From Cyanophora paradoxa CCMP329 (taxonomy: Eukaryota; Plantae; Glaucophyta): a stretch of 31,062 nucleotides of DNA. The notes below the pieces were generated by a model. That model was not told the DNA's origin, made no database searches, and saw only the letters and a program-made list of their open reading frames with translations. This document shows, in pieces, positions 1,785 to 27,283 of the stretch. The stretch is taken from the NCBI GenBank assembly GCA_004431415.1, contig QPMI01000653.1, positions 1 to 31,062 of the forward strand, given 5' to 3'. Position 1 is the stretch's first letter; each line of letters begins with the position of its first letter. Made by a program: the position numbers and the translations under genes.

Positions 1785-2230
1785 AGATGGTGCGGCCGGC
1801 CCTGCTGACAGATAGCCCGCCTGGTCGATTCCGGCTACGGCGCCTGTACCCCCGACGGGCCACGAGCTCTCTGGTGGGACGAGGCGGGCGGCGGGGGGCG
1901 GGGAGAGCGGGGTACGGACGAACGAGCCCGCCGCTTATCGCCCGCCTGGTCGATTCCGCTACGGCGCCTGACCCTGGCGGACGCGCGAGCTCTCGGTGAG
2001 ACGCGGCGAGCGGCAGAGGGTTCGGGGAAGCGGGGGGTACGGACAAACCGAGCCCCGCCGCTTATGGCCGCCTGGTCGATTCCGGCTACGGCGCCTGTAC
2101 CCCTGGGCGGCCCGCGAGCACGTCGTGAGGCGAGGCGAGCGGCCAGAGGGTGCGGGGGAGCGGGGGTACGGACGGACCAGGCCGCCGCTTATGGCCCGCT
2201 GGTCGATTCCGGCTACGGCGCCTGTACCCT
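1785..2230 (-). repeat. Tandem array, type A units (~125 bp), 4 cores, reverse orientation
   Basis: GCCTGGTCGATTCCGGCTACGGCGCCTGTACCCC (some with 1-bp deletions) at ~1819, 1944, 2070 and 2198. Reverse complement of the units at 5017-6776 and 26899-27283. Confidence 0.95.
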
Positions 2231-2332
2231 GGCGGGTGCGCGAGCTCTTTGAGAGACGGGGGCGAGCGGTCGGAGGGTGCGGAAGCGCGCGAAGGGGTGG
2301 GTCGAGAGGAAAGGCAAACGACAGCGTTAGCA

Positions 2333-3490
2333 GGGGTACACGCACCGTAGCCGGAATCGACCAGGCCGCCCCTACTGCGAGCCAGCTGCTGCGATCCGTA
2401 CGGGCGCCGAGTGAGCGAGGGCGGGGGGGCGGGGGGGGCGCGTTGGAGGGTACACGCACCGTAGCCGGAATCGACCAGGCCGCCCTACTGCGAGCCAGCT
2501 GCGGCGGGCCGTGCGGGCCGCGAGTGAGCGAGGGCGGGGGCGCTCGAAGGGGGCGAGAGGCCTAAGGGGTACACACACGTAGCCGGAATCGACCAGGCCG
2601 CCCTACTGCGAGCCTGCTGCCGCGGGCCGTACGGGTCGTCGAGCGAGCGAGGGCGGAGGCGCACAAGGGGGGGCGAGGGCTAAGGGTACACACACCGTAG
2701 CCGGAATCGACCAGGCCGCCCCTGCTGCGAGCCAGCTGCGGCGGGCCGTGCGGGCCGCGAGTGAGCGAGGGCGGGGGCGCTCGAAGGGGGCGAGAGGCCT
2801 AAGGGTACACACACCGTAGCCGGAATCGACCAGGCCGCCCTACTGCGAGCCTGCTGCCGCGGGCCGTACGGGTCGTCGAGTGAGCAAGGGCGAGGCGCAC
2901 AAGGGGGGGCGAGGGGCCTAAGGGGTACACACACCGTAGCCGGAATCGACCAGGCCGCCCCTACTGCGAGCCAGCTGCGGCGGGCCGTACGGCCGCCGAG
3001 TGAGCGAGGGCGGGGGCGCTCGAAGGGGGCGAGAGGCCTAGGGGTACACACACCGTAGCCGGAATCGACCAGGCCGCCCTACTGCGAGCCTGCTGCCGCG
3101 GGCCGTACGGGCCGCCGAGTGAGCGAGGGCGGGGCGCTCGAGGGGGGGCGAGGGGGCCTAAGGGTACACACCGTAGGCGGAATCGACCAGGCCGCCCTAC
3201 TGCGAGCCAGCTGCGGCGGGCCGTACGGGCCGCCGAGTGAGCGAGGGCGGGGGGCGCTCGAAGGGGGCGAGAGGCCTAAGGGTACACACACCGTAGGCGG
3301 AATCGACCAGGCGCCTCTACTGCGAGCCAGCTGCCGCGGGCCGTGCGGGCCGCCGAATAAGCGAGGGGCGGGGCGCTCAAAGGGCGAGAGGCCTAAGGGG
3401 TACACACACCGTAGCCGGAATCGACCAGGCGGGCCCCTACTGCGGGCCAGCTGCCGCGGGCCGTGCGGGCCGCCGAAGGAGCAACGAGGG
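2333..3490 (+). repeat. Tandem array, type B units (~118 bp), 10 cores
   Basis: GGGGTACACACACCGTAGCCGGAATCGACCAGGC-CGCCCCTACTGCGAGCC at ~2333, 2448, 2566, 2684, 2803, 2922, 3040, 3161, 3280 and 3397. Confidence 0.95.
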
Positions 3491-5016
3491 CGGGGCGCGC
3501 GAGGGGCCGCGGAGCGGGCAGCGGGCGAGGAAAGGGGGCGGGGCTCGCTGCAGCCCGAAGAAGCGGACCGAGCGCGGTGCCGGCCGACTCGGTGATCGTC
3601 TTGCTCGCCGGACCGGTGCGCCCGCACTCCTCCCCGCGTAGCGCTTCGCGAGGGTGTGGCGGAGAAGCGCGCGGGTCCGCACGCTGCGCGCCGGCGCCGC
3701 ACGCGGCGGCCGCGGACCGATCGATATCGACGGCCGGAGGCGCGCAGGCGGAAAAGCGCGGAAAGTGCGCCTTGGGCTCCGGCTGCGTCTGCGCTACCGC
3801 CGAGCGCGGCGCCGTGCGCGCGAGCTCGGGTGCCAGCATGTGCGAATAGGGCACGCATACGTGAGCTTGTGGGCCGGAGAGGCATCGGAGGGCGCTGCGG
3901 ATCGATCGCTAGCCATGGCCATGGGATCTTCGACTCAGTGACTGCGCCGACCCGAGCACGAGCCGGGCGGGCGCCGACGCGATTTTCGAGCTCAACAGGA
4001 GCCAAGGACTGCGCCAGAGGGCACTCGCGCGACGCGGCGTGCTGTTGAAATTCGATGGTGCGATGTCGCACGATCGAAACGTTGCAAACTGGCCCCCCCC
4101 CCCCCGAAAGAGCTGCGCTTTGGGCCAGCGTGCGTGCACGCGCTCGCCGAGCTGCGGCGGCAGCTGCGGCACGCGGTGCGCGTGCTCGAGCCTCCAGGCT
4201 CCAGCCGCACGGCTGCGGCGAGTCTCTGGTACACGCATTTCACCGCCGGGCGGAAAAGCACGCTAGAGCCACAGCGATCCACGCACAGAGAGCAGCGGAC
4301 CCGAGCCGCGCTCGTGCGGGCGCTCGGACGCGCCCGAGCCGCGAGCCTCCTTCTGCTCTCCGAGAGATCTAGAGCCACGCCTCCGGCGGTTCCAGCTACC
4401 GTGCGGTTCATGCGCTCCCGTCGGTCGTAGCCTGCTCGGCGGCCGCGGCCCGCAGGCAACTTTCGATCCGCCGCGGCTGACGTGCGCATGCCTCTGTACA
4501 TGTCCCTCGCCCGGCCGCAGGGCGCCGACGCCGGATTAAGTTTTTGCGCGCCGCGAGCTCTTCCTGCGTTCAGTTCGAATCAAAGCGGCTCATGCCTACG
4601 CGCGCCGCGCGCCCGGCCGGGCCCGCCCGCCGGAGCCGGCCGGCGCTCAACCGGCCAGGCCTCGGCGCCGGGCGCGGCGCCCCGTCGCCCAGAGCGGATC
4701 GCCTGGTGCGCTTCGGGGCCGCCTGCTCGGGGGGCGGGACGCGCGGCAGCGGCCTGGCGAGGCCGGGCGCGGGACGTCGGTCGGCACGGGGAGCCGGCCG
4801 ATGCCCTGCGGCGGCGGCGGCGCAAGCGGCGGCGGGGCGTCCATCGCGAGGTTGAGCGCGGCCCGCCGGGCGCCGCGCCCGTGGCGGGCGAGAGAGGCCC
4901 CGCTTCGAGCGTCCCTCTGGATCCGCTTCCCCGCCAACGCCAAGCCCTCCGCAGCCGGCCCGCCGGGCGAGCCAAGAGCGCCCGGGGCCTCGTGTGGGGG
5001 TGCGCCCGAGCACGGC

Positions 5017-6776
5017 GGGCCTGGTCCGTCCGTACCCCCGCTCTCCCCGCCCCCGCCGCTCGCCGCGTCTCACCGAGGGCTCGCGGGCCCGCCCAGGGGT
5101 ACAGGCGCCGTAGCGGAATCGACCAGGTGGGCCATAGGCGCGGGGGCTGGTCCGTCCGTACCCCTCGCTTCCCCCGCACCCTCTGGCCGCTCGCCGCGTC
5201 TCACCGAGAGCTCGCGCGTCCGCCCAGGGGTACAGGCGCCGTAGCCGGAATCGACCAGGTGGGCCATAGGCGGCGGGGGCCTGGTCCGTCCGTACCCCCC
5301 GCTTCCCCCGCACCCTCTGGCCGCTCGCCGCGTCTCACCGAGAGCTCGCGCGTCCGCCCAGGGGTACAGGCGCCGTAGCCGGAATCGACCAGGCGGGCCA
5401 TAATCGGCGGACCCGGTCCGTCCGTGCCCTCTGCTCGCCCGCCCCCGCCGCTCGCCTCGTCCACCGACGTGCTCGCGGGCCACCCAGGGGTACAGGCGCC
5501 GTAGCCGGAATCGACCAGGCGGGCGATAAGCGGCGGCCCGGTCCGTCCGTACCCCGCTCCCCTGCACCCTCTGGCCGCTCGCCTCGTCTCACCGAGGGCT
5601 CGTGGGCCCGTCCAGGGTACAGGCGCCGTAGCCGGAATCGACCAGGCGGGCCATAACGGCGGGCCCGGTCCGTCCGTACCCCCGCTCGCCCCCACCCCCG
5701 CCGCTCGCCTCGTCTCACCGGCGTGCTTGCGGGCCGCCCAGGGGTACAGGCGCCGTAGCCGGAATCGACCAGGCGGGCCATAACCGGCGGGGCCGGTCCG
5801 TCCGTACCCTGCACCCTCTGGCCGCTCGCCTCGTCTCACCGAGAGCTCGCGAGCCCGCCCAGGGGTACAGGCGCCGTAGCCGGAATCGACCAGGCGGGCC
5901 ATAAGCGGCGGGCCTGGTCCGTCCGTACCCCCCGCTCTCCCCGCCCCCGCCGCTCGCCGCGTCTCACCGAGGGCTCGCGGGCCCGCCAGGGGTACAGGCC
6001 GCCGTAGCCGGAATCGACCAGGCGGGCGATAAGCGACGGGCCTGGTCCGTCCGTACCCCCCCGCTTCCCCCGCACCCTCTGCCGCTCGCCGCGTCTCACC
6101 AAGAGCCTCGCACCGCCCAGGGGTACAGGCGCCGTAGCCGGAATCGACCAGGCGGGCGATAAGCGGCGGGCCCGGTCCGTCCGTACCCCCGCTTCCCTGC
6201 ACCCTCTGGCCGCTCGCCTCGTCTCATCGAGAGCCGCGGTCCGCCCAGGGGTACAGGCGCCGTAGCGGAATCGACCAGGCGGGCGTTAAGCGGCGGGCCC
6301 GGTCCGTCCGTACCCCCGCTCCCTGCACCCTCTGGCGCTCGCCTCGTCTCACCGAGGGCTCGTGGGCCCGTCCAGGGGTACAGGCGCCGTAGCCGGAATC
6401 GACCAGGCGGGCCATAACCGGCGGGGCCCGGTCCGTCCGTACCCCGCTCGCCCCCACCCCCGCCGCTCGCCTCGTCTCACCGGCGTGCTTGCGGGCCTGC
6501 CCAGGGGTACAGGCGCCGTAGCCGGAATCGACCAGGCGGGCCATAACTGGCGGGCCCGGCGTCCGTACCCTGCACCTCTGGCGCTCGCCTCGTCTCACCG
6601 AGAGCTCGCGAGCCCGCCAGGGGTACAGGCGCCGTAGCCGGAATCGACCAGGCGGGCCATAAGCGGCGGGCCGGTCCGTCCGTACCCCCGCTTCTCCCCC
6701 GTCCCCGCCGCTCGCCTCGTCTCACCGAGAGCTCGCGGCCCCGCCCAGGGTACAGGCGCCGTAGCCGGAATCGACC
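5017..6776 (+). repeat. Tandem array, type A units (~127 bp), 14 cores
   Basis: GGGGTACAGGCGCCGTAGCCGGAATCGACCAGG at ~5096, 5227, 5361, 5487, 5615, 5741, 5862, 5989, 6120, 6247, 6375, 6504, 6620 and 6748. The inter-core sequences are homologous to each other. Confidence 0.97.
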
Positions 6777-6979
6777 GGGGGGTCAAAACCGGACGACTCT
6801 CGGCGGGCGCCGTTTCGCGGCGCCCACCGCGGGGCCCGCGCGCCGGCGTTGGGGCCCGCGGGCCATCGCCCACCGCCGGCCGCCGCCCCGCCCCGGCACG
6901 CGTCCTTCCCACCGTACCTCTCCCCTCTCCCCCGCCACCCCGTCTGCCGCTTTTGCCCATCCCGGCGGGCCCGATGGGG

Positions 6980-6989
6980 CATATATAGG
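6980..6989 (+). promoter_or_regulatory. TATA-like box CATATATAGG upstream of the 7069 gene
   Basis: Isolated AT island in very GC-rich DNA, ~88 bp before ATG 7069. Identical 10-mer at 11954-11963. Confidence 0.6.
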
Positions 6990-7068
6990 AGTCGCCGGCC
7001 CCCGATCCTCCCGACGAGACCGCAGGCCCCTTCTGCGGGGTCCTCCTCCTTCCCCCCTGCCTCCGGCG

Positions 7069-9403
7069 ATGGCGTCGCAGCCGGCGTCGGGGGCCAGGTG
7101 ACGAGCCCGCGGGGCGCGGCGGGCGGCGCGTCCGGCTGCCCGCCCCTCGACTCGCGGCCGGCCAAGGTCAGCCTCCCCGCGTTCATCAGCCTGGGGCGGG
7201 ACCCGCTCTCTCCTGCCGCCCGCCTGCGCCGCTGCAAGTCGGAGCGCATCCTCCCCCGATCCTCCTCTCCTGCGCCGCCGCCCGCCTCCTCGCCAAGACC
7301 GGCGCATCGTCCGTCAACGAGGCCCTGGACGCCCACCCGCGCCCCGCCCTCGACGACCTCAAGTTCAACTCGACCGGCTCGTTCGTCTGCCTCAGCTGCG
7401 CCCTCACCCTCCTCTCCGTCAGCGCCGAGGGCGGCGCCTCGCCGCCCCTCTTCACCTGCCCCAGCTGCGGCGACCCCCACCCGGCCGCCTCGGGCCTCGT
7501 CTGCAGCTCCCGCATCGACGCCCTCTTTTCCTTTCTCGCCTACATCGACGACGCCGCCTTTGCCGCCTCGTGGATCTCCGGCGACCTCTGCCTCCGCACG
7601 GCGCTCACGTACGCCCTCGAGCGCTTCCAGGCGGCCGCCGCCCAGGCCCGCGCCCGCCGCCGCGCCGCGGCGGCCCGCCCCGGCCCCCGCGGCCCCCGCC
7701 GGGGCGGGCCGAGCTCGGGCTCCGGCTCTGGCCCCGAGCCGCCGCCCGTCCGACGGATCCGCGCCGCCGCCCAGCCGCCGGCGCCGGCGGCCGCCCCCTG
7801 GCCCGGGGAGCCGGCCGCGGGCGCCAAGGCCCAGGCGGCAAGAAGCGCAAGGAAAGGGCGCCGCCTTGGGCCGGGCCGGCCGCCGAGGAGGAGGGGGAGG
7901 AGAAGGAGGAGGAGGGGCCGGCCACCGGCCCTCGCGATCGCGCGCCAAGCGCGCCGCGACGTCGACCAAGGGCCGGCGCGGGGCGAGTCGGCGGCCGAGC
8001 AGGAAGAGGGGAGGACGGCGCCGAGGAGCGGGCGCTGGAGCGGCGCAAGACGCTGCGCCCGCCCAAGCCGGCGAGCTCCCCCGACCCGAGGCGGCGTCGG
8101 CGTCGGCCTCGGCGCAGGGCGCCGGCCCGGGTCCGGCTCGGGCGCCGGCCCTCGAAGCCGGCGCGGCGGGCGGCGCGGAGCAAGTGGGGCGCCGGGCGCG
8201 ACGCCGCAAGGAGTGGGAGTCGGACAAGCTCATCCGCGTCCTCTACAACGCGTACACGCGCCCAAGGACGAGGACGCGCGCTCCGAGTCGGAGGGGGGCA
8301 GCTCGCCGGGAGCGGCGGCGGCGGCGGCGGCAGCAGCGGCGGCGGCGGCAAGGGCAAGGCAAGGGCAAGCGGCGGCGGCCCCCTCGCCATCGAGGCCGGG
8401 CCCGAGGGCGGCGGGGCGGCGGCGGCGGCTCGGGCAGCGAGGAGGACGGCTCGCGCGCCGGCTCGCCGGACCCGCGGGGCAAGGAGCTCGCGGAGCGCTG
8501 GCGCAAGGCCCTCGCCGAGGCGGAGCGGGCGAGGGCGGCGCGGACGACGCCGACGAGCTCGCCGAGGGCCCGCCGGGGCGGGGGCGAGGGCGAGGGCGGC
8601 TCGACCCAGAGTCGCTGGAGGCCTACGACTTTGGGCTCGAGCGGGATCGACCCGGGGCTCATCGGGCGCCAGATCGACGCCAGCCCCGAGGCCGCGCGGC
8701 CCTCCTGAACCGCATCGAAGAGGCGGGGCGGGAGCGGATCCGCTGCATCATGCTCATCGCCTGCTCCGTCCTCGCCGTCCACCAGGCCTACACGGAGCGC
8801 TACGGCCGCAACCGCCGCCTCTGGGGCGCCTACCGCGCCGAGCACCTCTGCGCAAAGTACGACCACATCCTCCAGGCGGCCGGCTTTCGCCTCGAGGTCA
8901 GCGCCCAAAAGGTGAGTCGCTTCGAATTCCCCTGCGGGAGGAGGGGCGGGGGCGGGCCCCTAGCGCTAGCTGCAAGCACGCGTGCCCGGCCCGGCGTGCT
9001 TTCAACGTCGCTCACCGGAGGCTCGCGCAGTCCGAGATCTACAACGACCTCGCGCGCTGGGAGAGACGCTCACGAGGTTCCCTGGCCTGGCGCGCGTCTG
9101 CGGGAGCGGCATATCGGTCGTCGACTTTGTCAGCTGCCTCCCGCTCCTGAAGGGCTGCACGAAAGAGGGGGCGGACCAGATCCGGAGCGGCTCGCGGAAG
9201 AGGTGCAGCGCGCCAAGGGCTTTGTCTTTGACGGCTCGGTGCTGGAGCTTCGGGAGGCCGGCGAGAGCGACGGGACGGGGACGGGGACGAGCAGAGCGAG
9301 GCGTCGGGCGAGGAAGGGCCGCCGAAGGCGCCGGCGAGGCCGGCGCCAAAGGCGACTGACCGGCAACGAAAATAGCACACGTTATACGCTGTTTAGAGTT
9401 TAG
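7069..9403 (+). CDS. Hypothetical protein with CxxC...CxxC zinc ribbon, low-complexity linker and helical C-terminal domain (frameshifted, at least one intron near 8912)
   Basis: High-GC3 frame not shown in the ORF track reads ILLSCAAARLLAKTG...FVCLSCALTLL...LFTCPSCGDPHP...FSFLAYIDD...ALERF (~7259-7640). It continues with EWESDKLIRVLYNAYT and LLNRIEEAGRERIRCIMLIACSVLAVHQAYTERYG...SAQK|gtgag. The 3' end (9359 or 9403) is uncertain. Confidence 0.55.
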
Positions 9404-12034: not shown

Positions 12035-14763
12035 ATGTTCAGCGTGGTCAAGGACGCCTACGAGGTCGCCGAGTTCGACGGCCTGTGGGGCCGGGACCGC
12101 CTGATCCTGCTGCGCTCCGACGCCGGCCTCGTCGTGCCCGTCGCCGAGCTGCGCCGCATCCTCATCTACGCCCCCGATGAGCCGCCGGAGGACCCCGACC
12201 GGGCGCTGGCGGACCTGTACCGCGTCCCCTGCAGGCCCGTCGCGAGCGAGGAGACGATCCTGCTGCTCGAGATGCTCGGCGTGATCCGCCGCGGGGCGCA
12301 CCGGCCCGACGGGAGCCCGCCGCGCGTCGTCTCCCTCCGCCACGCCGAGCAGATCGTGTGCGAGCGGTGGGACGAGGACCCCGGGGTGAGCGCGAGGAAG
12401 CGGTGCGTCGCCCGCCACATCCTCGCCGCGATCGAGCGCCGCCGGCTCGAGTCGTTCGAGCGCGTCGAGCTCCGCGTCCTCCGCCTCGGGCCCTCCAGCG
12501 CCACCCGCGTCTTTGCCCTCCGCTGCAAGCGCATCGAGGTCCCCGTGAGCGGCGCCCCCGACCAAGCACCGCCCCGGCGCCCCGCCCCGCCCCGCGCCCC
12601 ACGCTCACCCGGCCTCAGGACGTCGAGTGGTACGCGCCCATCGCGTCCCTCGCGCAGGCGGCGTACGGCTCCTCGCGGACGTGCCCTCGCTGCGGGCCGA
12701 GATCAGGCGCAAGCACCCCGACCTCGGGGCCGACTCGCCTTTTCGCTTCGAGGCACGGACCGACGTCGTCGGGCGGGCCCGCTTCGCCCTCCTCACCAAG
12801 GCGCGCGCCCGCCTCCCGCCTCCGAGCGCGCCCGGGCGCCGGCTGATCGATATTGTGACCGCCCGCGGCCGGGGGTCAGACGCTGACGCTGTACGCCGGG
12901 CTGAACGCCGAGGTCGAGGGCGAGGCGACGCGCGGGCGGCGCGCAAGTGGGGCTTCATCAGCCTCGCCGGCGCCGAGAGGATCCTCCAGGGCCTGCCGCG
13001 CTTCGGGACGAGCTCCTCGTGCCGTTCCGCCGCCAGCGCCTCGCCCTCGAGGGCGCCGACGCCGCCGAGATCGAGGCCGCCGCGCCGCTGCCCCTCGCCC
13101 CCGCCCGCCGCATCGCCATCTTTACGAAGCGCGAGTGGCTCACGGTAAGCAGAGGGACGCGCGGGGCCGGGGCGCGGGGATCGAGGCGGAGGGGCCGGGG
13201 GGCGCTGACCGCGGGCGGCGGCGGCAGGACCAGCACATCGCCAACTGCCTCTCGATCGTGCTGGCGCGGGCCAGCGCGGCGCCCCGCGTCCGAGCCCTGT
13301 ACCCCATGACGCTCGACATTGCGACGAGCCTCCTCCGCCGCCACGCGCGCGCCAGCCCCGAGAAGCGCCGGCGCCGCGCCCTGGGGGCGGCGGAAGAGGG
13401 GCGCGTCATCCTCTGCCCCGTCTCGGGCGGGCTCGTGCGGCGCGGGTCGGAGCGAACCTGGAGCGCGGGGGGCCACTGGACGCTCCTCGTGATCTCCGGC
13501 GACCTGCGCCGCACCCGCTACTTTGACAGCCTGGGCGCGCGCCCGGACCCGTCGCTGGAGCGGGCGGCGAAAAAGGCCTTTCCGAACTTTGAGTTCGAGG
13601 TCGAGACGCAGCTGCGGCTGCAGGCCGATGGGTACCAGTGCGGCATCTGTGCGCGCGCCGCCGCCGCTCAGCGAGTGGTACCGGTACGGTGCAAGGGGAA
13701 GGGACGCCGACGCACCCGTGCGCGCGCAGGGTCCTCTACTTTGCGGAGAGCGTGGTGAGCGAGGCGCTCCTCGGCTTTCCCTGGGACGACGAGCTGCGCA
13801 CCGGCGCCCTCCACTACCTGCGCACCAAGTCGCCCTCGTACGAGGAGAGAAAGGCGATCAACGGGCGCTTCATCGCGGGAAAGAGGGAGCACTTTCGGAG
13901 CCTGCTCGAGTCGGCGCTCGTCGGCGACGTCTACCTCTTCTGCGAGGCCGACGTCGCCGATCCGGAGCGCGTGACGCTCCCGCCGCCGGCCGCCGCGGGC
14001 GAGGCCGCCGCCGCCGCCGCCGCCGCCGCCGAGGGGAGGCCCCGCCGGCGGGCGGACGGGGGGCCGCTGGTCATCTCCTCGTCCTCTTCCTCGTCGTCCT
14101 CGTCGTCCGCCCCGTCCGACGAGGCCGACGAGGCCCAAGGCGGGGCCGCGGACGGCGGCGCCGACGGCGAGGCAGAGGGCCTGGAGCTGGAGGCGGCGCC
14201 GGAGGCGAGCGAGGGCGAGGGCGAGGGCGAGGGGGCCGCAGAGGGCGGGCGGTCGCGCCCGGAGCCGTACGCGCTGCCGGAGGGCGAGTGGAGCCGCGAG
14301 CTGCGGGCGCAGATGAAGCTCTTCGAGGAGTGGAGGACGAGGGCGATCAACCCGGACCGCGCGGGGGCGGCCGTCGAGCGGAGCACGGCCCTGACGAACG
14401 ACGTCGGTGAGCGGGCGCGGCGGCGGCGGCGGAGATGCATATGGGCGGGGCGGGGGACGGAGGAAAGGGGGCTCACGGGGAATCGACGCAGGGACGGTGG
14501 GGCGCTTCCTGGGGTACCTGGCGGCGAGGGAGGAGGTCAGACCGCTCTCGTTCGACGTCTTCTCGCGGGGGGACCTGATCGACCTGTGGATGCGGTTCCT
14601 GACGTTTCTCAAGGAGGAGAGGAAGCTCACCGCGGGGACGCTGAGCGGCTACACCAGCTCGATCATCATGGCCGCCGCCTTTGTGCACTCGAGGACGGGC
14701 GCCGCGACGGGGAGCGAGGGCCCGCACGCCCGCGCCCTGAAGAACGTCAAGGTCAGAGGCGCT

Positions 14764-14795
<32 letters not shown>

Positions 14796-15768
14796 AGAGG
14801 GATCTAGAGAGAGGAGGAGAGGGGCGGAAGAGGGTCGGGGCGGGGGCTACGAACCCGACGCCCGCCCGCCCGCAGGCGCAGCTGGAAAAGGAGAAGCGGG
14901 AGGAGCGCAAGTGGCGGCCGCGGGGCGAGAACTGGGTCGAGTACGAGCAGGTCCTGGGCGCCCGGCTCGCCGCCCTCGAGCAGTACGAGGGCGCGAAGAC
15001 GGACTACGAGCGGGCCCAGGCCCTCCGCGAGGCCTGCCTCCTCGGCTTCCTCGCCGTCACGCCGGCCCGCGTCGGGATCATCCGCCGCCTGCGCGTGGGG
15101 GTGAGCCTGCGGCGCGACGCGGGGGCGTGGTGCATCGTCATCGACTCGATGCGGGCGGACGACGGGACGGGGGAGATGGCCCTCGCGAGCAAGACGGCCC
15201 GCTTCCACGGGGCCCTCTCGATCCCCGTCGCCGCCGTCCTGCAGGAGCCGCTCACCCTCTTCGTGGAGCGCTTCCGCCGCCTCCTCATCCCCGACGGCGC
15301 CCCCGACCAGCAGTGGCTCTTCACCAGCTCGAGCGGCGGCGTCCTCAGCGAGAGCGGCTACGGCGCCTGGGTCAAGCGGGCGCGTCGGAGGGGGTGGCGG
15401 GGGCGGGGCCGGGGCTCACCGCCGCGCCGGCAGGTGCTGGAGCGGTGGACGGGCAAGCCGGTCTCTGCACGCGCCATGAGGGCCGTCCTGACGACCTACG
15501 TGCGGGAGCGGGCGGCGGCGCACCAGATCGAGGGGGACACGGCGGCGGCGGTGATCGAGGGGACGGCCCGCCTCCTGCAGCACAGCGTCCAGACGGCGAC
15601 GACGCACTACGACTACGGCGCCCGCGCCCGCCAGGCCGCCGCCGCCGTCGCGTTCTTCGAGATGGCCGCCCAGCAGCACGCCGCCCGCCGCGCGGCCGAG
15701 GGCGCCGACCGCGAGCGCCTCCCGGCCCCGTCCCCGCCGCCCGCGGCCGCCGGCTCCTCTGCGGCTCC

Positions 15769-15800
<32 letters not shown>

Positions 15801-17056
15801 CGGGGGCGCCGACGGGCCGGACGAGGGGGTACCGGTGGCGCAGCCCGCCGCCGAGCCCGAGCCCGAGCCCCGCGCCGGCGCCCCGTCTCCCCCCTCCTCC
15901 TCGTCGTCCACCGCGACGCCGCCGCGCCGCGCAGCGCGGAGGACGGCGCCCCCGAAGCCTGCGGAAGAGGATGAGGAGAGCGACGGCGGGAGCGGGCGGG
16001 GCCGCTCGGGAGGCGCGAGCTCGTACTCGGAAGACGGCGAGGATTCCACGGGGAGCGGGGCCTCGAGCGGCGGCGAAGAGGGGCCGGAGCAGAAGCGGAG
16101 GCGCTTCCCGTGGCAGAAGCAGAACCCGTTCACGAGGCCCGGGATGCAGGTCGAGCGCGACCTCGCGATCGCCGAGGGGAGGTACTGCGCCCCGTGCGTC
16201 AAGGTGAGGCCCCGCCCGCCGTCCGCCCCGCCCCGCCCCCGCCCGCCCCCTCTCCCGCGGACCGACCCGGCAGCGCCCGCGCGAGCAGATCTTCCGCACC
16301 GCGGCGGGGTACCAGCGCCACCGGGCGACGTCCAAGGCGCACGGCCGAGGGGCCGGGGCGGGGCGGGGCGGCCGCCGGCGGGGGTCCAGGGGCCGCGCCG
16401 CGCGGCGCGGGCGGGACGGGGACGGGGAGGAAGAAGAGGAGGAGGAGGGGGAGGAGCAGGTCGGCGGCGAGCCCCCCGCGGCCCGCGGGCCGCTCTGGCA
16501 CCTGCGCTGGACGTCGGCGTCGCCCTTTCGGGCGGGCCAGGTCGTGGCGGCGCTCACCTCGCACGCGGCGGATCCCCTGCCGCGCCCCGTCTTTGCCCGC
16601 CTCGTCGCGACGGTGCCGCTCCCCTCGGGCGAGACGGAGAACCGCTTCGTCGTGCTCCGGCGCTTCGGGGCCCTGTACGCGCCGTCGACCGAGGGCGGGC
16701 CCGGCGACTGGGGGCGGCCCCGCGCGCTCGTACCGGTGCAGAGCGAGTCGAGGAACGGCGCCGTCGACGTGCTGACGAAAAGCGAGCGGATCTTCGACCT
16801 CCTCGGCCTGGGCTCCTCCTCGTCGGCGCCGCCGCCGCCGGCGCCGCCGCCGGCCCGCGGGCCCGGCCCCGCGACGAGGAGCGCGAGCGCGGGCCCCCGC
16901 GGCGCGGCCGCCCGCCGAAGCGCGGGGCCCGCTCCGCGTAGCCCCCTGCGGCCGCCCTCGAGCCGCCCCCGCCTCCCACCAGCTGCAGAGATCGAGCGCG
17001 CGCGGGCTGGGCGCGGCCCGGGAGCTGAAGAGGTCGGCCGAACTGCGCGTGCGTAA
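12035..17056 (+). CDS. Multi-exon fusion protein: putative tandem Bro-N/SKI-like DNA-binding domains + Ulp1/SENP-like cysteine protease (C48) + tyrosine recombinase + C2H2 zinc finger + C-terminal domain
   Basis: Protease: EWLT|DQHI...GHWTLLV (His 13474)...YFDSLG (Asp 13525)...QADGYQCGI(W)|VLYFAE (Gln 13621, Cys 13639). Recombinase: RFLGYL...FLKEERKLTAGTLSGY, TPARVG (Arg 15068), SKTARFHG (Lys 15191), ARAMR (Arg 15479), LLQHS (His 15581), THYDY (Tyr 15608). Finger: YCAPCVK|IFRTAAGYQRHRATSKAH (~16183-16342). In-frame introns at 14407-14491, 14752-14875, 15380-15433 (GC-AG) and 16204-16288. A few 1-bp frameshifts are needed. Confidence 0.85.
14773..14799 (+). repeat. (GA)n microsatellite inside a recombinase-gene intron
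   Basis: gagagaga... run within intron 14752-14875. Confidence 0.9.
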
Positions 17057-17145
17057 AAAGAGGCCGGCGGGAGGAGACGCGGGGCGGCAAGCTAGCTGCA
17101 GCGCGCGCGGGCGCCGGGGCGCGAGCGCGTGCGACGCCGGCTTCG

Positions 17146-17556
17146 ATGGGGGACGCACCGGGGCCGCCGACGACGACTCCAGCGACGACGCAGTCGATCC
17201 TGGAGCGCGCAGGCTCGCAGCATGCCGTGTACCTGCTCCAGAGCGAAAAGGCGGGCGCCGGCGTGACCTACACCGGCTCCACCAGCTGCCTGGCGCGCCG
17301 GCTCAAGGAGCACCAAACGGGGGCGATCAAGGGCGCGTACACGGCCGGAAGGGGCCCCTGGCGACTCGTGGCTGCGGCGTGGGGCTTTGCAGACGCCGCC
17401 GGCGCGCGTTCGTTCGAGATGCGCGTCAAGAAGCGCTCCGGCGGCGCGAAGCGCAAGCTCCACGCCATGCGCGACATGGCGCATGAGGGTGCGAGCGCGG
17501 GCCTGGCGTTTGGGCTCGCCGAGGGCCTCGTGGGCGGCTGCGGCGAGGTCGGGTGA
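17146..17556 (+). CDS. SLX1-like GIY-YIG endonuclease (136 aa, intronless)
   Basis: AVYLLQS...TYTGST..LARRLKEH...GAYT.GRGPWRLV....GF.....ARSFE matches the GIY-YIG SLX1/UPF0213 motif series, including the conserved Arg, His and Glu. Starts 90 bp after the recombinase stop. Confidence 0.88.
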   Translation: MGDAPGPPTTTPATTQSILERAGSQHAVYLLQSEKAGAGVTYTGSTSCLARRLKEHQTGAIKGAYTAGRGPWRLVAAAWGFADAAGARSFEMRVKKRSGGAKRKLHAMRDMAHEGASAGLAFGLAEGLVGGCGEVG

Positions 17557-18461
17557 GGAAGGCAGGACGGGCCGCGATCGCGCGCCCGAGGCTAGCCTAG
17601 CGGATGAAGAGTCGGATGTAGAACCTTGAAGAAGCGCGAGATGCCGCTCCCGCGATGCTGCCTGCGCTCGCCGGGTACGAGGCTTTAAGCACGGGGGGGG
17701 GGGGAAAGGAGGGGAGAGGTTGGGGGGGAGAGGGGGGGAGGGGGGAAGCGGAGCCACGTTGCGACAACGTCGGTCAGTGTTCGAGACCGGGACCCAAGCG
17801 GCGCCGGCGGGCCGCAGCTCGCGCTCTGCGATCGGATTTGGAGACGTTATGCGAGAGCGGGTGCCTCCAGCCCGGCGCGGCCGAGCGCAGATGCGAATGG
17901 CGGGCGATGGGCCGAGCCTCGCGGCGCCCTCCAGCAGGCCGCCCGCCGGCCTGGGCACCGTGCTTCGAACTGCCTCTGCGCCAGGCCTAGGCTCCTTCCG
18001 GTGAGCTGGTGCGCCCTCGAGCTCGCGCGGCCGCCGGCGACGACCGCACACACAGCAGCACAGCAGCACAGCAGCACCCAGCTGTGCAGCGCGCTCCGCT
18101 TACCGTCCAGGCGAACCGCCGGGGGCATAGCTCGCGGCGCCGGCGCGGCTCCCCCGCCCCCATGCCTCGGCTCCTCCGATCCCCGTCGACGGCAAGGCGG
18201 CGGCGCCGTCCTGCAGGCCCAAGCTCGGCGCCGCGGAATCGGGTGCGAGGGGCAAGCCAGAGGCCCCAACCCCGCCCCCGCCTCTGCAACCGCCCGACCG
18301 CCCGCGCCGCCATGCGCAGCCGCAGTGCCGCGGATCGCGGCGAGCTCAGCGATTCCGAGCGTGCGTGCATCTTCCGGGTGCGGCGGGGCGGCGCTCCTAG
18401 AATTCCCCAGCCCGCCCCTCTCGCAGCCGGCCTCGCGCCGCGCTCACTCGCCCCCTAACCC

Positions 18462-18938
18462 CCCGTACCCCCGCGCAGCGCGCGGTCTACGGCCCTGTGG
18501 CGGATTCCGGGTACGGGCCGTGTACCCCTCTCTGCTCCGGGCGGCGCGCCGCCGACTCTTCCGATCTACGGGTCCGGCCCCTCCCAGCGGTGCCCCGCCG
18601 CGCTCGCCGACCCCCGTACCCCCCGCAGCCTGCGCTACACTGGCCGTGGCGCATTCCGGCTACGGACCGTGTACCCCCTCCCTGCGCCGCGGCACCTCGC
18701 GAGGGGCGGCTCGCTCGAGCGGTTCGGCATGCTTCAGAGGCCCAGCGGAACCGACCTCAGGGGGGGGAGCGGCACCGTGCCCCGAATCGACCCGTCGCGA
18801 GGTCAGAGCCGCCCCGCGCCCCTGCCCCCTCCCCCCTAGACCCCCTCTGCCGCCCCGCCCCTTCTGATTCGGGACGGGGGCGGGGGAATGCAGGAACGAC
18901 CCTGAGGGGGGTAGCGGCACCCTACCCGGAACCGGCCG
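18462..18938. repeat. Degenerate copies of the repeat core: two reverse, then two weak forward copies
   Basis: GGATTCCGGGTACGGGCCGTGTACCCC (~18502-18528) and GCATTCCGGCTACGGACCGTGTACCCC (~18651-18677), each preceded by CCCGTACCCC. Weak forward copies CACCGTGCCCCGAATCGACC (~18773) and GGGGTAGCGGCACCCTACCCGGAACCGGCC (~18908). Confidence 0.6.
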
Positions 18939-19169
18939 GGCGGCTCGATGGAGATGCGGCGGTCCCGCGCGCGACGGGGCGGCCCGCTGGGCCCGGCCCG
19001 CCTTAAAGGGAACCCGGCAGCCGCTCTCTCGGGCCAAGGATCGCGGTCCTTCGACCCCCCGCAGACGCGCCCAGGTGCGCCGCCCACGCCCGCGCCCTCC
19101 CCCCCTCGGCGACCCCGCCCGCCGGCCCCCTCGCTCCGCACCGACGCCCGCGTCTGCGCAGGCGAGAGC

Positions 19170-20755
19170 ATGCCGGGCCGCGCGATCGAGGGCTCCGGCG
19201 GCGCCGGAGCGGTGGTGGCGGCGGCTCGCTCCCCGGCCGTCAAAAAGGCAAAGCAGGGCGGGCGCGGCGGCGGCGGCGGCGGCGGTGGAGGCGGAGGCGG
19301 CGGCGGCGGGCCGACCGAGGGACCCGCCGAGGACGCCGGCGGGGCGCCCGCCCCGCAGCAGCAGCAGCAGGAGCGCGAGCACGACGGGGGCTCCGAGGGG
19401 CGCCCCGACGCCGAGCCTGGCGCCGCGGCCGCCGCGCCGCCGGCGCCCCCCGGCAAGCCCAAGCGCCCCCGCGGTGCGTTCCCCTCTCTCGCCGCCCCGG
19501 CCAACTCTCATCCCGCCCGCGCCGCGCAGCCCGCGGGACGGCCGGCGGCACCCCCCCCGCCCTCTCGGGGAAGCGCGCCAAGCTCTTTGCCGACGGCACC
19601 GGTGCGTCCCGTACCCCCCCTCCCCCTTTCCCTTTTTTCCCTCCCAGGGCCGCCCGCGCCGATGGGCGTCCCGGGGCGCAGGTCGCGGCGCCGAGGGGGG
19701 CGCCAGAGGCGCCGCGGAAGAGGCGCACGCCGCCGGCTTGGCGGGCGAGCGCTCGGACGGCTCCGGCCATGACGGCGGCAGCGAGGGGGACGGCAGCCAG
19801 CGCGAGGTGGGGCCGGACCCCCCCTCCCCCCTCCCTCCCCCGCCCGGTTCGTCCCCTCTGACCGGTCTGCGCGCAGGGCCCCGGCTCGCACGACGAAGAA
19901 GACGACGACGAAGGCAACGACGAGCGGGGCGACGAGGACGGGGGCGGCAGCGACGCCGACGGGGCGACGGACCGCGCCCACGGGCGGGGCGGGGCCGGGG
20001 ACCGGCCCCTCAGCGCCGAGCTGCGCCGCGCGGCCGGCCTCCCGCCGGCGGTGACGCGGCGGGAGCGGGCGATCCGGGCCCGCTGGGCGCGCGCGGCGGC
20101 GCACCGCCGGGCGGCGGCGGCGCGGGAGGCGCTGGCGGAGCGGCTGCAGTCGACGCTGCGCCCGCGGGCCGAGCGGCTCGAGGCGCGCGCCGCCGAGCTG
20201 GGGCCCGAGGCGGCGGCCGCCGAGGCGGCCCACGTGCGGATGGTGGCGGAGCGGGCGGAGCTGCAGCTCGCCGCCTGCAAGGGCCGCCCGGGGCTCGAGC
20301 CCTCGATGCGGGCGGCGGCGGAGCGGGCGCGGCGCCAGCTCGAGACCGAGGAGCGGCGCGCCGCCCGCGCGCGATCCGCCAAGGCCGCCGCCGTCGCCGC
20401 GCGGCGCCGCGTCGAGGACGCCGAGGAGGCGCTGGAGGAGGACCCGAGCCCGGAGCCGATCTTCACCCCACCGGCCGCCGGCGCCTCCAGCGCCATCTAC
20501 TGGGTCGCCCTCGCCGCCGCCCTCGCCCTCGGCGGCCCCGCCGCCGCCGACCCCGACGCCCAGGACCGCGCCGCCGCCGAGGCGGCCGCCGAGGCTGCCG
20601 CCGAGGCCGCCGCCGCCGCCGCCGTCGTCGACTCGTTCTCTTCTTCGTCTCCTCCGGAGGCGAAGACGGCCGCTCCGGCGCCGGCCCCGGAGCCCGGCCC
20701 CGCCCCCGAGGCTCCTGCCCACGAGGCCGAGGGCGCCGCCCCTGCAGACGCCTAA
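19170..20755 (+). CDS. Multi-exon low-complexity / Ala-Glu-Arg coiled-coil hypothetical protein
   Basis: ATG 19170 follows a 5'UTR-like intron (GTGCGC ~19075 to CGCAG 19161). Several GTGCGT...CAG introns. Last exon is GC3-rich (RERAIRARWARAAAHRR...SAIYWVALAAALALG...) and ends at TAA 20755. Confidence 0.5.
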
Positions 20756-20761
20756 TCGAGA

Positions 20762-20766
20762 CCCCC

Positions 20767-20816
<50 letters not shown>
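20762..20816 (+). repeat. Poly-C tract (~50 nt)
   Basis: Directly visible. A shorter poly-C tract lies at ~26389-26418. Both sit just upstream of GGGATTCCC-type promoters. Confidence 0.9.
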
Positions 20817-20821
<5 letters not shown>

Positions 20822-21083
20822 CTCCAACGACGAACGAAGCGCCTTCAGGACCCCCCGAGACGTTACGGGGTAGATGCAGGCGCGGGGTGGAGGGGGTGGG
20901 AGGGGGGGAGGGGGGAAGAATGCCAAGGGATTCCCGGGCGGCGTCGGGAATCCCGGGTCGAGCCGTCGAGACCGCGGGGTCGATAAAAGGGGTTGCGCGG
21001 TGCCATCTCACAACACGAGCGTGCACTATCGCCCGAGAAAAGGCCGCCCACCCCCACCAATTCTCGTACCGCTAGAGATACCG

Positions 21084-22067
21084 ATGGCCACGGAGACGAC
21101 GCACATGGCGGCGGCGGCGGCGGCGCCCCTTTCCGAGCCGGCGGCGCCCAGGTTGATCGCCGACCTCCCCGACGAGATCGTTCGCATGGTAACGAAGCGG
21201 CTCGGGCCCTGGGATGCCAAGCGCACCCTGGGGTCTACGAACCGCCGCTTTCGCGACTTGGTCAAAAACGACGACGGCGAGTGGGCGGCCTTGTGCAAGA
21301 CGCAGCTCGGGATCGTGGTTCCCGAAGACGCTCCGCGGGACGGCCTACAACGTCTACGCCGGCTTTTTCGCGACGCGCTGCCGCTTGTGCTTTGAGCGCG
21401 GCTTCTGGAAGCCCAGCGAGGAGCCGATGGTGATGGACCCGCTCTTGAACATGCGCCTCTGCTCCACCGACGCCCGCTGCGATCGTACCCCGATGAGCAG
21501 CATCTACACCATTTCTTATGAATCGAAGAACAGCCACGACAATTACGGGCTATACGGAAACACCATCCCGCACCTAGTCGTCGACGCGGCCGGTCGAACG
21601 AATTACGCCGCCCTCGTCAGGGAGCGGAGCGCCGCCGCGGCCTCCCCGCCCGCCCAGGCCTCCTCTCCATGGCGGAGATCGTCAAGCGCTACCACCTCGT
21701 CCCCGCCGCAATACGAAGCACCGTCCGCGCGGGGCCCTCGCCGCGGCCGGCTACGACCCGGAGACGCTGGAGGAGCGCTTCGACCCCGCCGCCGTCCGTG
21801 CCTGGCTGGTCGATGAGGCCGGCGCCGGCATCCCCGATCCAGAGGGGCGCGCACGAAATCTCGAGAAGGCGGCAGAGTACCGCAAGCGCCGCCGCGGACA
21901 GTTCGAGCAGCACACTGCGCCGGCTGCGCATATGCATGCCACCGCTCCGGCTGCGCATGCCACCGCGCCGGCTGCGCCTGCCGCGGGGCGGCCGGGGTGG
22001 CGTCATGATCAGCTATATGAACTATATATACGACGTCGATCTGGGAGAATTCGTTACCGCTCCTTGA
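21084..22067 (+). CDS. F-box protein with CxxC...C zinc-binding region, paralog 1 (intronless, frameshifted; 3' end uncertain)
   Basis: IADLPDEIVRMVTKRLGPWDAKRTLGSTNRRFRDLV...W..LC is an F-box signature. Followed by RCRLCF...DPLLNMRLC...C and NYGLYGNTIPHLVVDAAG, shared with paralog 2. Confidence 0.75.
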
Positions 22068-22627: not shown

Positions 22628-23634
22628 ATGACCCTGACGACGATGCCGACCCGTGCACTTGAGCTCGAGCCCGAATTTGTGGAGGCGGTGGCGCATGGAG
22701 GCCGCCCGGGCGCGTCGCCGGCGCCCGTGGCCGAGGCCGAGGCCGACATAAATCGCGAGATCGAGCTCACGATCGTGCCTGCCGCGCCAAAGTCGACGTC
22801 GGTGTCGTTTCTAGACCTCCCCGACGAGATCATCGCGAAAAGATCGCCACCATGCTGGGCGCCAAGGGCGCCAACATGTACCTGGGATCCCTCTGCCGCC
22901 ACTTCCGCACCATCGTCAAGGAGCACGACCAGGCGTGGGCGCAGCTGTGCACGACGGAATTCGAGCTGGGCGTCACCAACATGGAGAGGGCCCCGCGCGG
23001 GGGGCCCCACGCCGCGTACTTTGCGTTTGCCGCCGTGCGCTGCAAGGCGTGCTTCTACGGCCACCGCGACTGGAGCCCCGCGGCCGACACGCCGTTTATC
23101 GACCCGATCACAAAGTGGCCCGTCTGCGCCGACTGCGCCGCTCCCTACACGAGCACCGCGAACGGCGTGGCCATTGGTCACGTGATCAGCGCCATCTCTG
23201 GCGAGTCCCGCGAGGCCAGCGTCAAGTACGGCCTCTACGGAACCACCATCCCGCACCTCGCCGTCGACGCGGCCGCTTTACGAACTATGCCGCCATCGTC
23301 AGGGAGCGGGAGCGCCGCCGCGGCCTCCCGCCCGCCCGGCCTCCTCTCCATGGCGGAATCGTCAAGCGCTACCGCCTCGTCCCCGGTCGCTGTCTGCATC
23401 ACCGCCCGCGCGGGCCTCCCCGTGGCCGGCTACGACCCGGAGACGCTGGGGAGCGCTTCGACCCGCGACGTCCGTGGCTGGCTGGTTGAGAAGGCCGAAA
23501 TCCCCGATCCGGAGAGGCGTGTGCGCGATCTCGAGAAAAAGGCCGAGCGGCGCAAGCGCAAGCGACAGCAGGAGCCCGACGCCGAGCGCTCCGCCGCGCC
23601 GGGCGCGTCCGTAGAGGCCCACGCCGAGATCTAG
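22628..23634 (+). CDS. F-box protein with CxxC...CxxC zinc finger, paralog 2 (intronless, frameshifted)
   Basis: FLDLPDEIIAK(fs)IATMLG...LGSLCRHFRTIV...WAQLC is an F-box signature. Followed by RCKACF...DPITKWPVCADC, KYGLYGTTIPHLAVDAA, GYDPETL and IPDPE, shared with paralog 1. Confidence 0.78.
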
Positions 23635-24960: not shown

Positions 24961-25544
24961 TAATATTGATCAAGCTTATAAATAGCTTGGATACCGTAGC
25001 ACGTGTACGTATACAGTTCTGCGTCAGAAGCGATACATAATATACAAGCTCACTGATCATGATCATGCCATGATGCATATGGATGATGCGAATTCGACTG
25101 CACATACATATGCATGCATTTACATCATTACACACGTAAATATACGAGCTACTAAACGTATTATAGCTAAAACTAATGTAATACGCATAATGTAAGCACG
25201 TATATATTATACCGCGCGGCGCGCAGCTGAATAGAGTAACGTATAGTACACGTACTTGGTAGCGCGTGCCAATTCCGGATCCAAGTACGGCCTAAGCTTG
25301 CTGCCCGTTTTTGCTCTTCGCATCGCCTCTAGATTTCCTCTCATATATAATCACCCTCTGAATCTCACACACAGCGTGGGTGTACGTAGCTATAACGTTC
25401 AATGGCTCACACGGGTACGTATACGGGTCGGTTTATTTCGCGTAACAAACCGTATATATATACGTAGTACGTATACATGCGGGTCTGAAGAGAAAATGCG
25501 AGGCCCCACGGTACGGCCAGGGGGTAGAAGGGAGCGGGAAAGGA

Positions 25545-26190
25545 TCACTGTAGCTGGTCACGAGCGCTAGCGGGGGCGGGGGCGGGGGCGGCCGCGAGGG
25601 CTGCGTCGAGCTCGGTAGCGAGCTCTTTGTAGATCTTTTGCTTGCCCCAACACATCAGCTCCTGGCAGAGATCCGCCTCTCGGTAGAGCCGGAACGCGAG
25701 CTCCGCCTTGGCGTACCCGCCGTTGTTCGAACGGGGTCCGCGGTACCGGCTGCCTTGGCCTTTCTCGCGGTATTCGTTCACGTAGTCATCCCACATTTCC
25801 CGCTCAAGGCGGGGGAAGCGCTCCACATCCGTCCATGTCCCATCACTGAAGATCTTTTCTTTGAAGCCAGACCGTGCGCCTGTAACGCCGACGTATTGCT
25901 CGATACGGGCGCGCTTGAGGGCTGTGTCGATGGCATCTACGGCTCTGGCGCGCTTCGCGCCGATTATGGCGTCGCAGTCGAGGTTCACGACTTCACGGGC
26001 TCCGTCGGCGTAGACCTGAAGGCCCTCCTGGATCTCCTCGGAGCTGCAATTCCTCCAAAGGCTTAGAGCGGAAAATCCGGTAGCGGGCTTCGAGGGGCCG
26101 TTTGGCGCCGGCGGCGACGAGCTTTGGCTCGTCGTCCTTGAACACGGTCTTCGCGCGCTTGATCAGGCTCTTCACTTTGCCGGCGTCCAT
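25545..26190 (-). CDS. Hypothetical protein, ~215 aa (intronless; ORFs 25993-26190 and 25545-25988 joined across frameshifts)
   Basis: Globular-looking composition (MDAGKVKSLIKRAKTVFKDDEPKL...; ...FSDGTWTDVERFPRLEREMWDDYVNEY...). Minus-strand TATAAA at 26306-26301 and two GGGATTCCC motifs upstream. Confidence 0.6.
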
Positions 26191-26559
26191 GGTCGATCGC
26201 GGGGGCGGTCTAGGTCTGGGCTGGCGTAAGCTTTTGGGTGCGCGGGCGAGACCGCGAGTGCGAATGACGATCGATGCCGACCGGAGCGGACGCGAACCCC
26301 TTTATAGACCCGCGATTCCCTTGGGGATCCGGGGGCTTGGGGGATTCCCGGTTGGGATTCCCGGCCCGACGGACCCCGCCGCGTCCCAACCCCCCCCGCC
26401 CCCCCCCCCCCCCCCCCCTCGATCCTCTGCGTTCACATGAAGCCCAGCCCTCGCGGTGAAAAAAGCGCGAGACCGCGTCGCGCCTCGCCGAGCCTGTGGC
26501 GAGCTGGCCGGCGGCCGCCCGCCGCTCTGGCAGATGCCACGCCCGAGCGGGCCCGTTCA

Positions 26560-26812
26560 GGGGTACCCCCTCGCGCACCCCCGGCCTCGCTCACCGGCGG
26601 CGAGCACCCCGTACGGCTCGCTGCATCTGGCTCGCAGTAGGGGCGGCCTGGTCGATTCCGGCTACGGCGTGTGTACCCCTCAATCGCGCCCTCTCCGATT
26701 CTCGTACGCCCCTCGCGCTCGCCCTCGCTCGCCCTGCGGCCCGTTCGGTTCGCCGCAGCTGGTGCGCAGTAGGGGCGGCCTGGTCGATTCCGGCTACGGC
26801 GTGTGTACCCCT
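26560..26812 (-). repeat. Type B units, reverse orientation, 2 cores
   Basis: CGCAGTAGGGGCG-GCCTGGTCGATTCCGGCTACGGCGTGTGTACCCC, with cores at 26646-26679 and 26778-26811. Confidence 0.93.
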
Positions 26813-26898
26813 GCTAACGCTGCCCTTTTCCCTCCCTCTCCAACTACCCCTGGCCCTCCCGGGTCCCGCATCCTCTCAGCGAGGACCCGCAGGACGTC

Positions 26899-27283
26899 GG
26901 GGGTACAGGCGCCGTAGCCGGAATCGACCAGGCGGGCGATAAGCGGCGGGGCTCGGTTCGGTCGTACCCCCGCTCCCCCCGCCCCCCGCCGCGCCCTCGC
27001 CTCGTCTCACCGCGCGCGAGCTCGCGGGTCCGCCCAGGGGTACAGGCGCCGTAGCCGGAATCGACCAGGCGGGCCATAAGCGGCGGGGCTCGGTTCGGTC
27101 GTACCCCCTGCTCCCCCCGCCCCCCGCTGCGCCCTCGCCCCGTCTCACCGCGAGCCCGCGCGTCCGCCCAGGGGTACAGGCGCCGTAGCCGGAATCGACC
27201 AGGCGGGCCATAAGCGGCGGGGCTCGGTTCGGCCGTACCCCCGCCCCCCCCCGACCCCGCCCGCTCGCCCCGTCTCACCGAGG
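26899..27283 (+). repeat. Type A units, 3 cores (~135 bp period)
   Basis: GGGGTACAGGCGCCGTAGCCGGAATCGACCAGGCGGG at ~26899, 27037 and 27171. Confidence 0.95.

Follow-up and report, generated by a model that had tools for sequence, protein, structure and literature searches.

A conserved, probably protein-bound 30-bp site in dispersed tandem arrays of a likely mobile element of Cyanophora paradoxa

The DNA considered here is a stretch of 31,062 nucleotides (hereafter 'the window') from contig QPMI01000653.1, assembly GCA_004431415.1, of the glaucophyte Cyanophora paradoxa CCMP329. Likely this is DNA of a mobile element of Cyanophora, one that is multi-copy, intron-bearing, and longer than 31 kb. 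Along it lie five tandem arrays whose units carry a common site of about 30 bp, together with, for example, genes for a tyrosine recombinase fusion and for a primase-helicase fusion. The site appears to be one at which protein binds double-stranded DNA, and the arrays may serve the element somewhat as dispersed repeats serve baculoviruses.

Arrays and the site they share

The term core is used here for an 18-mer, CCGTAGCCGGAATCGACC, of which the window holds 33 copies, 27 of them exact and six with one edit. Ten dinucleotide-shuffled windows, by comparison, yield no match at two or fewer edits and a single match at three. The corresponding array units are of two types, 21 of type A and 12 of type B, and repeat with periods of 118-134 bp. 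Four diverged copies, described below, bring the total for the ~30-bp site to 37.

At the left, four type A units (1812..2282, minus strand; period ~127 bp) meet, in a back-to-back A/B junction at 2229..2333, a plus-strand run of 10 type B units (2333..3500; period ~119 bp). The largest array consists of a leading partial unit plus 14 type A sites (5013..6776, plus strand), and its end coincides exactly with the end of its last site, a TATA-like box following ~200 bp further on. At the right are two minus-strand type B units (26563..26858), directed at a TATA-like box on that same strand (26299-26306), and three plus-strand type A units (26900..27290). These are followed by an AT-rich run (27291-27345), which is the only one adjoining any array, the arrays themselves being 71-78% GC. 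The left junction has an inverted homologue at 26813-26899, with 1 of 3000 shuffles scoring as well, and more broadly 1861-2552 and 26566-27290 form an inverted repeat around 24 kb, i.e., 742 aligned columns at 78% identity. Lone GGGGTAC half-sites occur as well, at 27979, 28055, 28189, and 28264, that is, 75-134 bp apart between the RING-finger and primase-helicase genes, and also at 26560.

Contigs from three DNA runs are stacked over the arrays, which thus are not an artefact of a single assembly; relative to those runs the window shows many one-base indels. Tandem Repeats Finder (TRF) gives copy numbers of 3.7, 9.6, and 13.9, with a core present in each period of each array. Because every period carries a core, finding units by means of their cores leaves within-array conservation figures unbiased.

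The conserved 30-bp site can be written as GGGGTAC-N5-CC-GTASCC-GGAATC-N2-CC, and it holds an inner 6-7-6 dyad, that is, two inverted 6-bp half-sites about a 7-bp spacer. In a representative copy (5862..5891, plus strand) a GGGTAC half-site is followed by the spacer, a GTAGCC half-site, and a GGAATCGACC tail. Kept across types are GGGGTA(C/G), five variable positions, CC, (G/C)TA(G/C)CC, GGAAT(C), two further variable positions, and CC. Conservation thus extends ~16 bp on the right and 7-8 bp on the left, with symmetry limited to 6 bp.

Overlooked by the original prediction for this DNA were the inner dyad and the four diverged copies, the latter found at 18499-18937 and arranged back to back as the arrays are. 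These are C1 (18499..18528) and C2 (18648..18677) on the minus strand, and D1 (18763..18792) and D2 (18908..18937) on the plus strand, with a TATA-like box at 19003, ~65 bp past D2. Counting these, sites form four clusters, three of them having their sites directed away from a centre. Positions that are kept in the arrays are kept in the diverged copies too, with conservation dipping at spacer positions 1-5. The dyad is 5/6 in A, B, and C2, 4/6 in D1, and perfect (6/6) both in C1 and in D2, where, as GGGTAG-N7-CTACCC, both sides have changed; background frequencies are 0.012 for 5/6 and 0.0014 for 6/6. Complementarity is maximal at a spacer of seven in five of six site types, and among ten aligned sites 85% of cells are paired versus 18-52% in slid registers. 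Outside of the arrays and the C and D sites, scanning the window with a matrix derived from all six site types yields no further copies.

A second GTAC follows as well, and 17 of 21 A units and 7 of 12 B units have it 58-62 bp past the first. In C1 and C2 it stands at +57 and +55, respectively, as a direct rather than an inverted box. The distance across A, B, and C is thus 55-62 bp, for which chance is 0.024 per 9-bp window.

Conservation of the site and structure of the unit

The core had been predicted to be near-invariant while linkers vary, and pairwise mismatch, at 0.000-0.018 versus 0.22-0.27, bears this out. Specifically, among internal units (18 A and 10 B, the units at array ends, three A and two B, being excluded), mismatch in A is 0.000 within the core, 0.148 in the loop between the core and the second GTAC, and 0.267 in the linker; the corresponding values for B are 0.018, 0.106, and 0.220. 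The A spacer is identical in 18/18 units from three arrays 25 kb apart, with spacers differing between types, and B spacers differing by 0.208 between the left and right arrays. Transitions at CpG columns are absent inside of the site (0/4 in A, 0/3 in B) versus 8/13 (A) and 4/13 (B) outside of it. CpG methylation of repeats and giant-virus insertions are reported for Cyanophora in an excerpted part of PMC12344493.

Could the arrays be neutral minisatellites, their common core reflecting recent chimeric origin, slippage, and gene conversion rather than binding? Array growth has indeed been by multi-unit duplication, with a six-unit higher-order period in the middle A array and a two-unit one (239 bp) in the left B array, these being the products of ordinary unequal duplication, and much of each unit beyond the core is similar within an array. 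A paralogous recombinase gene model, P0005, moreover opens (residues 1-1070) with a translated tandem array of ~140-bp period and ~23 units that is without the site, having no 7-residue translation of the site in common. Duplication, however, copies whole units and so is inadequate to explain a sharply bounded, invariant site that is common to A, B, C, and D; also left unexplained are the missing CpG decay, the kept dyad, and the kept GTAC spacing despite compensating indels. Neutrality, on balance, seems rather improbable.

The prediction that the core is a selected protein-binding site is instead supported by its conservation, by the lack of CpG decay, and by its survival in six diverged site types. 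Counting for binding as well is that A and B have the site in common although their linkers no longer are alignable beyond chance. That is, because a sharply bounded site survives six contexts, keeps its dyad, and resists CpG decay, and because a third GTAC half-site is kept ~six helical turns away, these sequences point to a double-stranded protein-binding site, which, as summed over binding models, is quite probable. Selection on the site would act through that binding.

A different view of the unit is that it is a GTAC-bounded imperfect palindrome, types A and B having kept opposite arms of a single ancestor, with a comparison having been drawn to attC hairpins. Each unit would then be a decayed palindrome of 66-70 bp that extrudes an attC-like hairpin. 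GTAC does bound 24 of 33 units, and that part of the description stands, but as whole-unit palindromes the units do not. The internally deleted inverted core attributed to type A, with inner arm GCCTGGTC, is exact in just 4 of 21 A units; the one attributed to type B, matching at 8/10, is found in 5 of 12 B units (p 0.085-0.21 versus shuffles having the same right arm). Five B strands fold no better than shuffles (z +0.24 to +0.70). Among three A copies, a single one folds well (z -2.6 and -3.65 for its two strands), with the others at -0.35 and +0.21. Aligning left halves to right halves gives p<=0.05 in 1 of 31 units, short GC-rich shuffles making this a conservative test, and the RNAalifold consensus consists of the inner dyad plus one 2-bp helix, with no long hairpin. 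A whole-site, single-strand hairpin thus is not conserved by folds, half alignments, or consensus fold, and the likeness to attC falls away.

Nor do opposite arms account for how A relates to B. Similarity between A(+) and B(-) linkers, on which the idea had been staked, has a mean z of 0.44 and a median p of 0.44 (180 pairs versus dinucleotide shuffles), the two having in common a C-rich strand and the word CTCAC, and nothing beyond that composition. Post-core segments instead favour the same orientation, with a mean z of +1.24, p<=0.05 in 26% of 228 non-independent pairs, and 16/20 bases for the best pair, versus a z of -0.72 and 0% of pairs at p<=0.05 in the opposite orientation. The GTAC-to-GTAC distance stays at 58-62 bp because B has extra bases before the shared block and A has extra bases after it. 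A, B, and C would accordingly go back to a single cassette whose reading direction all three have kept. This is the simpler history, the data being compatible with linkers having either diverged or flipped. Hairpin extrusion by a decayed palindrome, against which the direct second GTAC of C counts as well, is highly improbable.

Genes of the element and a possible recombinase substrate

Both a tyrosine recombinase and a UL9-like helicase had been predicted for the element, and both were found, the helicase as a fusion with a primase. The recombinase is part of an intron-bearing gene (12035..16941, plus strand) encoding unassigned N-terminal domains, a Ulp1-like protease (a weak Pfam C48 match, E 0.011-0.095), the tyrosine recombinase, and a C-terminal region. 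The recombinase domain has language-model matches to PF00589 clusters at 0.97, and catalytic residues R, K, R, H, and Y all are present. As modelled, it is of the Cre/Xer fold, with core-binding and catalytic domains, the predicted structure of a paralogue, P0002, matching XerA, Cre, and lambda Int. There are five C. paradoxa paralogues of this same layout, 43-61% identical over matched stretches. A Bro-N label that had been given to the N-terminal domains was unconfirmed, there being no Pfam or PHROGs match and, in a model with a predicted local distance difference test (pLDDT) score of 49, no fold match above background. Upstream of this gene a second repeated motif, TTCTATTAGCTCGG, is seen at 11206 and 11344 (plus strand) and at 11967-11980 (minus strand), around a palindromic TATA-like box (11954).

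The primase-helicase gene (28386..31062, plus strand) is truncated by the window's end. It joins an archaeo-eukaryotic primase (AEP)-like domain, with a weak LigD Prim-Pol match (E 0.01), to a UL9-like superfamily 2 (SF2) helicase whose nearest clusters, as judged by language-model features only, carry Herpes_ori_bp (PF02399) in 20% and 53% of members. A PDB sequence search with P0063 gave no match. P0063 and P0064 are near-identical, full-length copies of the fusion under two other contig names, and therefore the element is multi-copy and runs past the window. Within 28028-28700+, two segments, 28092-28182 and ~28544-28606, are passed over by an X18 contig. Both read GT..AG on the minus strand, which likely represents a spliced antisense transcript over the primase-helicase 5' end, running toward the RING gene.

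Other genes include a GIY-YIG nuclease (17146..17556, plus strand; PF01541, E 1e-8) and the Pfam-recognised RING-finger gene (27336..27938, minus strand), which is convergent on the right A array and covered by an X18 contig. Downstream of the largest array is a spliced gene (~7070-9400) whose TATA-like box (6980..6988, plus strand) comes from a motif scan only. Its intron 8910-9028 is skipped by a contig of run X16, GT-AG introns being skipped by contigs of presumed RNA runs. Paralogous genes at 21083-21890 and 22628-23634, 82% identical over 360 bases, have by eye an F-box-like N-terminal motif, with no Pfam match. The gene at 25548-26363 exists in a second, diverged version (~87%), whose depth in X1 and X2 is comparable. 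X18 shows this second version, and a second subfamily is thereby suggested. A spliced gene left of the first array (1-1587) has raised contig depth and is unrelated to the helicase C-terminus, and so the element probably extends to the left of the window as well. Contig depth over the element is 216-589 (X1), 115-254 (X2), and 116-244 (X15) versus 35-104 for many stray matches, which is a hint only; in two presumed RNA runs depth over the arrays is low, and no weight is given to this. Pfam scans of 26 stretches recognised no capsid or packaging gene in the window, beyond which the element continues.

Given such an enzyme, the sites might serve the element's tyrosine recombinase as core sites, with inverted half-sites about a 7-bp overlap which decides partners, A recombining with A and not with B. 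Exchange of left A(-) with right A(+) would then invert a 24-kb segment, whereas exchange of middle with right A(+) would excise a circle of ~20 kb containing the recombinase gene. Lambda-type geometry, as given in a portion of PMC8371274, has inverted core sites with an overlap of 7 bp between them, and inverted half-sites about a 7-bp spacer, with an enzyme of the cognate fold in the same element, are what lambda-type, loxP, and dif sites also present. The A spacer moreover is invariant across three arrays, spacers are type-specific, the enzyme keeps its catalytic residues, and the two A/B modules form an inverted pair flanking the recombinase gene. Unlike those systems, however, there are 37 copies, in tandem arrays, versus one site per junction, and the 6-bp half-sites are short in comparison with the 11-nt arms given for dif in the source excerpt, their left flank being unconserved past GGGG. 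Fourteen direct sites 127 bp apart presumably should be lost to an unrestrained enzyme, array ends fall outside of the spacer, B spacers are not the same on the left as on the right, and the two modules are now 78% identical. A linkage test for crossover at the site had no power, the within-linker control having an r of 0.07.

Relatives of the enzyme bear upon this as well. An alignment of eight distant recombinases, ~30% identical to that of the window, retrieved 65 metagenome loci (248,764 bases). In three of these (L009, L030, and L037) the gene starts at an inverted-repeat inner edge, a point favouring recombination, but relatives' repeats have no site in common with the window; six loci (L005, L009, L034, L062, L064, and L065) have unrelated repeats of 68-196 bp in 2-3.6 copies. 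In L009 the recombinase gene begins at the inner edge of a perfect 4,485-bp inverted repeat (2976-7460 and 16078-20562), and L030 and L037, having terminal inverted repeats of 105 and 123 bp, share that layout. Of 21 loci in which the N-terminal end of the gene is present, 10 break off no more than 160 bp from it. These are hints, for the family rather than for the window's sites, at frequent residence in an invertible segment, although perfect long repeats can be assembly products. Overall, that the sites are recombinase substrates is possible though unlikely, if the foremost of the alternatives.

Other observations on these relatives can be noted. In L009, L030, and L037 it is both the recombinase and an N-terminal-domain paralogue that start at inner edges of inverted repeats. 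The L009 repeat carries, by eye, part of a large helicase-like open reading frame (853-3954) plus 68- and 181-bp tandem repeats, and its recombinase appears to be fused to an OTU-like protease motif. A shared 8-mer, found also in upstream DNA at four related marine loci, was judged to be chance.

Searches otherwise were negative. The site pattern has no matches in metagenome contigs; in viral contigs there are no loci with recombinase or primase-helicase relatives, and single matches there to the exact core (three) and to the degenerate site (five), none in an array, were taken as chance. Word-based protein searches with the recombinase and with the translated array frame found no match, as did Rfam over the window. 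No description of the element or its repeats was found in the literature, though supplements to PMC12220804, PMC10120064 (tables of polinton-like viruses, PLVs), and PMC6704402 (a repeat library) may list them. In passages from these sources, PMC12220804 has one mention of a Cyanophora PLV, the main text of PMC10120064 leaves Cyanophora unmentioned, and PMC6704402 gives 11.5% unknown repeats.

A role in replication or transcription

The reading placed first is that the arrays are protein-bound, double-stranded 30-bp sites which act as a dispersed replication origin, enhancer, or both, i.e., that they work like a baculovirus homologous region (hr) without being one. A probability of roughly 0.45 seems appropriate for this. 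It is ranked first because the layout matches that of an hr, because the element has its own primase-helicase, and because three array ends face TATA-like boxes, these being 65-260 bp off. In this scheme a dimeric element protein would bind the 6-7-6 dyad as double-stranded DNA, with the arrays' output being replication, transcription, or both. Candidate binders would be the primase-helicase, the recombinase fusion through its N-terminal domains, the zinc-finger protein encoded beside the largest array (at 7070-9400), or instead a host factor.

Spodoptera litura nucleopolyhedrovirus II (SpltNPVII), according to part of PMC4535591, has seven hrs, AT-rich and each with 3-8 copies of a 64-bp unit containing a 24-bp palindrome. 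Against those excerpted features, the sites here likewise are found in dispersed clusters (2-14 sites each) and as a conserved unit with a short imperfect dyad. Unlike an hr, the arrays are GC-rich, combine a 6-7-6 dyad with a one-sided conserved tail, and form back-to-back modules, and they belong to a glaucophyte nuclear element with introns, in which no baculovirus gene was found.

Several observations weigh against an hr-like role. The arrays are 71-78% GC with but one AT-rich neighbour, versus the AT-rich hrs and the AT-rich spacer that the consulted part of PMC12543377 describes for UL9 origins. Other TATA-like boxes, that of the recombinase gene included, are without an array. Covariation in the dyad amounts to one double change, which 95 of 500 shuffles equal and which is not significant alone. 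The RVKNL origin-recognition motif of UL9 is found in neither P0063 nor P0064. Lastly, the dyad site is absent from all 65 loci with distant recombinase relatives, and thus all site evidence comes from one element. As to herpes simplex oriS and UL9 in particular, there are likenesses in the UL9-like helicase domain and in the inverted boxes, yet an origin of that type is not what is seen: AT-rich spacer and RVKNL both are lacking, the helicase is fused to a primase, and the arrays are long and tandem.

Many regular dyad sites, GC-rich and without an unwinding element, would indeed suit a loading platform better than an origin. Epstein-Barr virus (EBV) family-of-repeats and 2-micron STB repeats are analogues in tethering and partition. 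The arrays might similarly serve in tethering or partitioning the element as an episome, or else recruit chromatin factors. There is, however, no sign of an episomal form, and no partition protein was identified, making this very unlikely, if marginally less so than the extruded hairpin.

As a whole, the element resembles Cryptons and other eukaryotic recombinase transposons, whose tyrosine recombinase gene likewise has introns and is nuclear, but differs in its many cargo genes, its own primase-helicase, and its internal site arrays. In common with polinton-like viruses and virophages, to judge from sections of PMC10120064 and PMC11296320, are a tyrosine recombinase, primase-helicase, GIY-YIG nuclease, cysteine protease, and integrated, multi-copy state. 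Here, however, the helicase is an SF2, UL9-like one, the Ulp1-like protease is fused to the recombinase, and introns are present, with no capsid or packaging gene recognised, a length of more than 31 kb, and repeats which are internal. For those viruses inverted repeats have been proposed, in the latter excerpt, as both recombinase substrate and origin. One could imagine likewise a capsid-less, self-replicating nuclear element in which tandem, spacer-coded recombinase sites double as origins for the primase-UL9-like helicase, with the central segment inverted or excised in 2-micron-like amplification and the marine relatives representing a simpler form of the design. This is a speculative combination, less likely than the sites being simply recombinase substrates though slightly more so than neutrality.

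What has been defined is a precise 30-bp cis site in an apparently undescribed family of large recombinase/primase-helicase elements, and this in Cyanophora, a model for plastid origin that has few genetic tools. If the sites instead are those of the recombinase, then a eukaryotic nucleus would harbour such sites as tandem arrays, and a new enzyme-site pair would result. If, as preferred here, the arrays are origins, enhancers, or both, then hr-like arrays would exist outside of the baculovirus lineage, and they may provide the base for an episomal vector.

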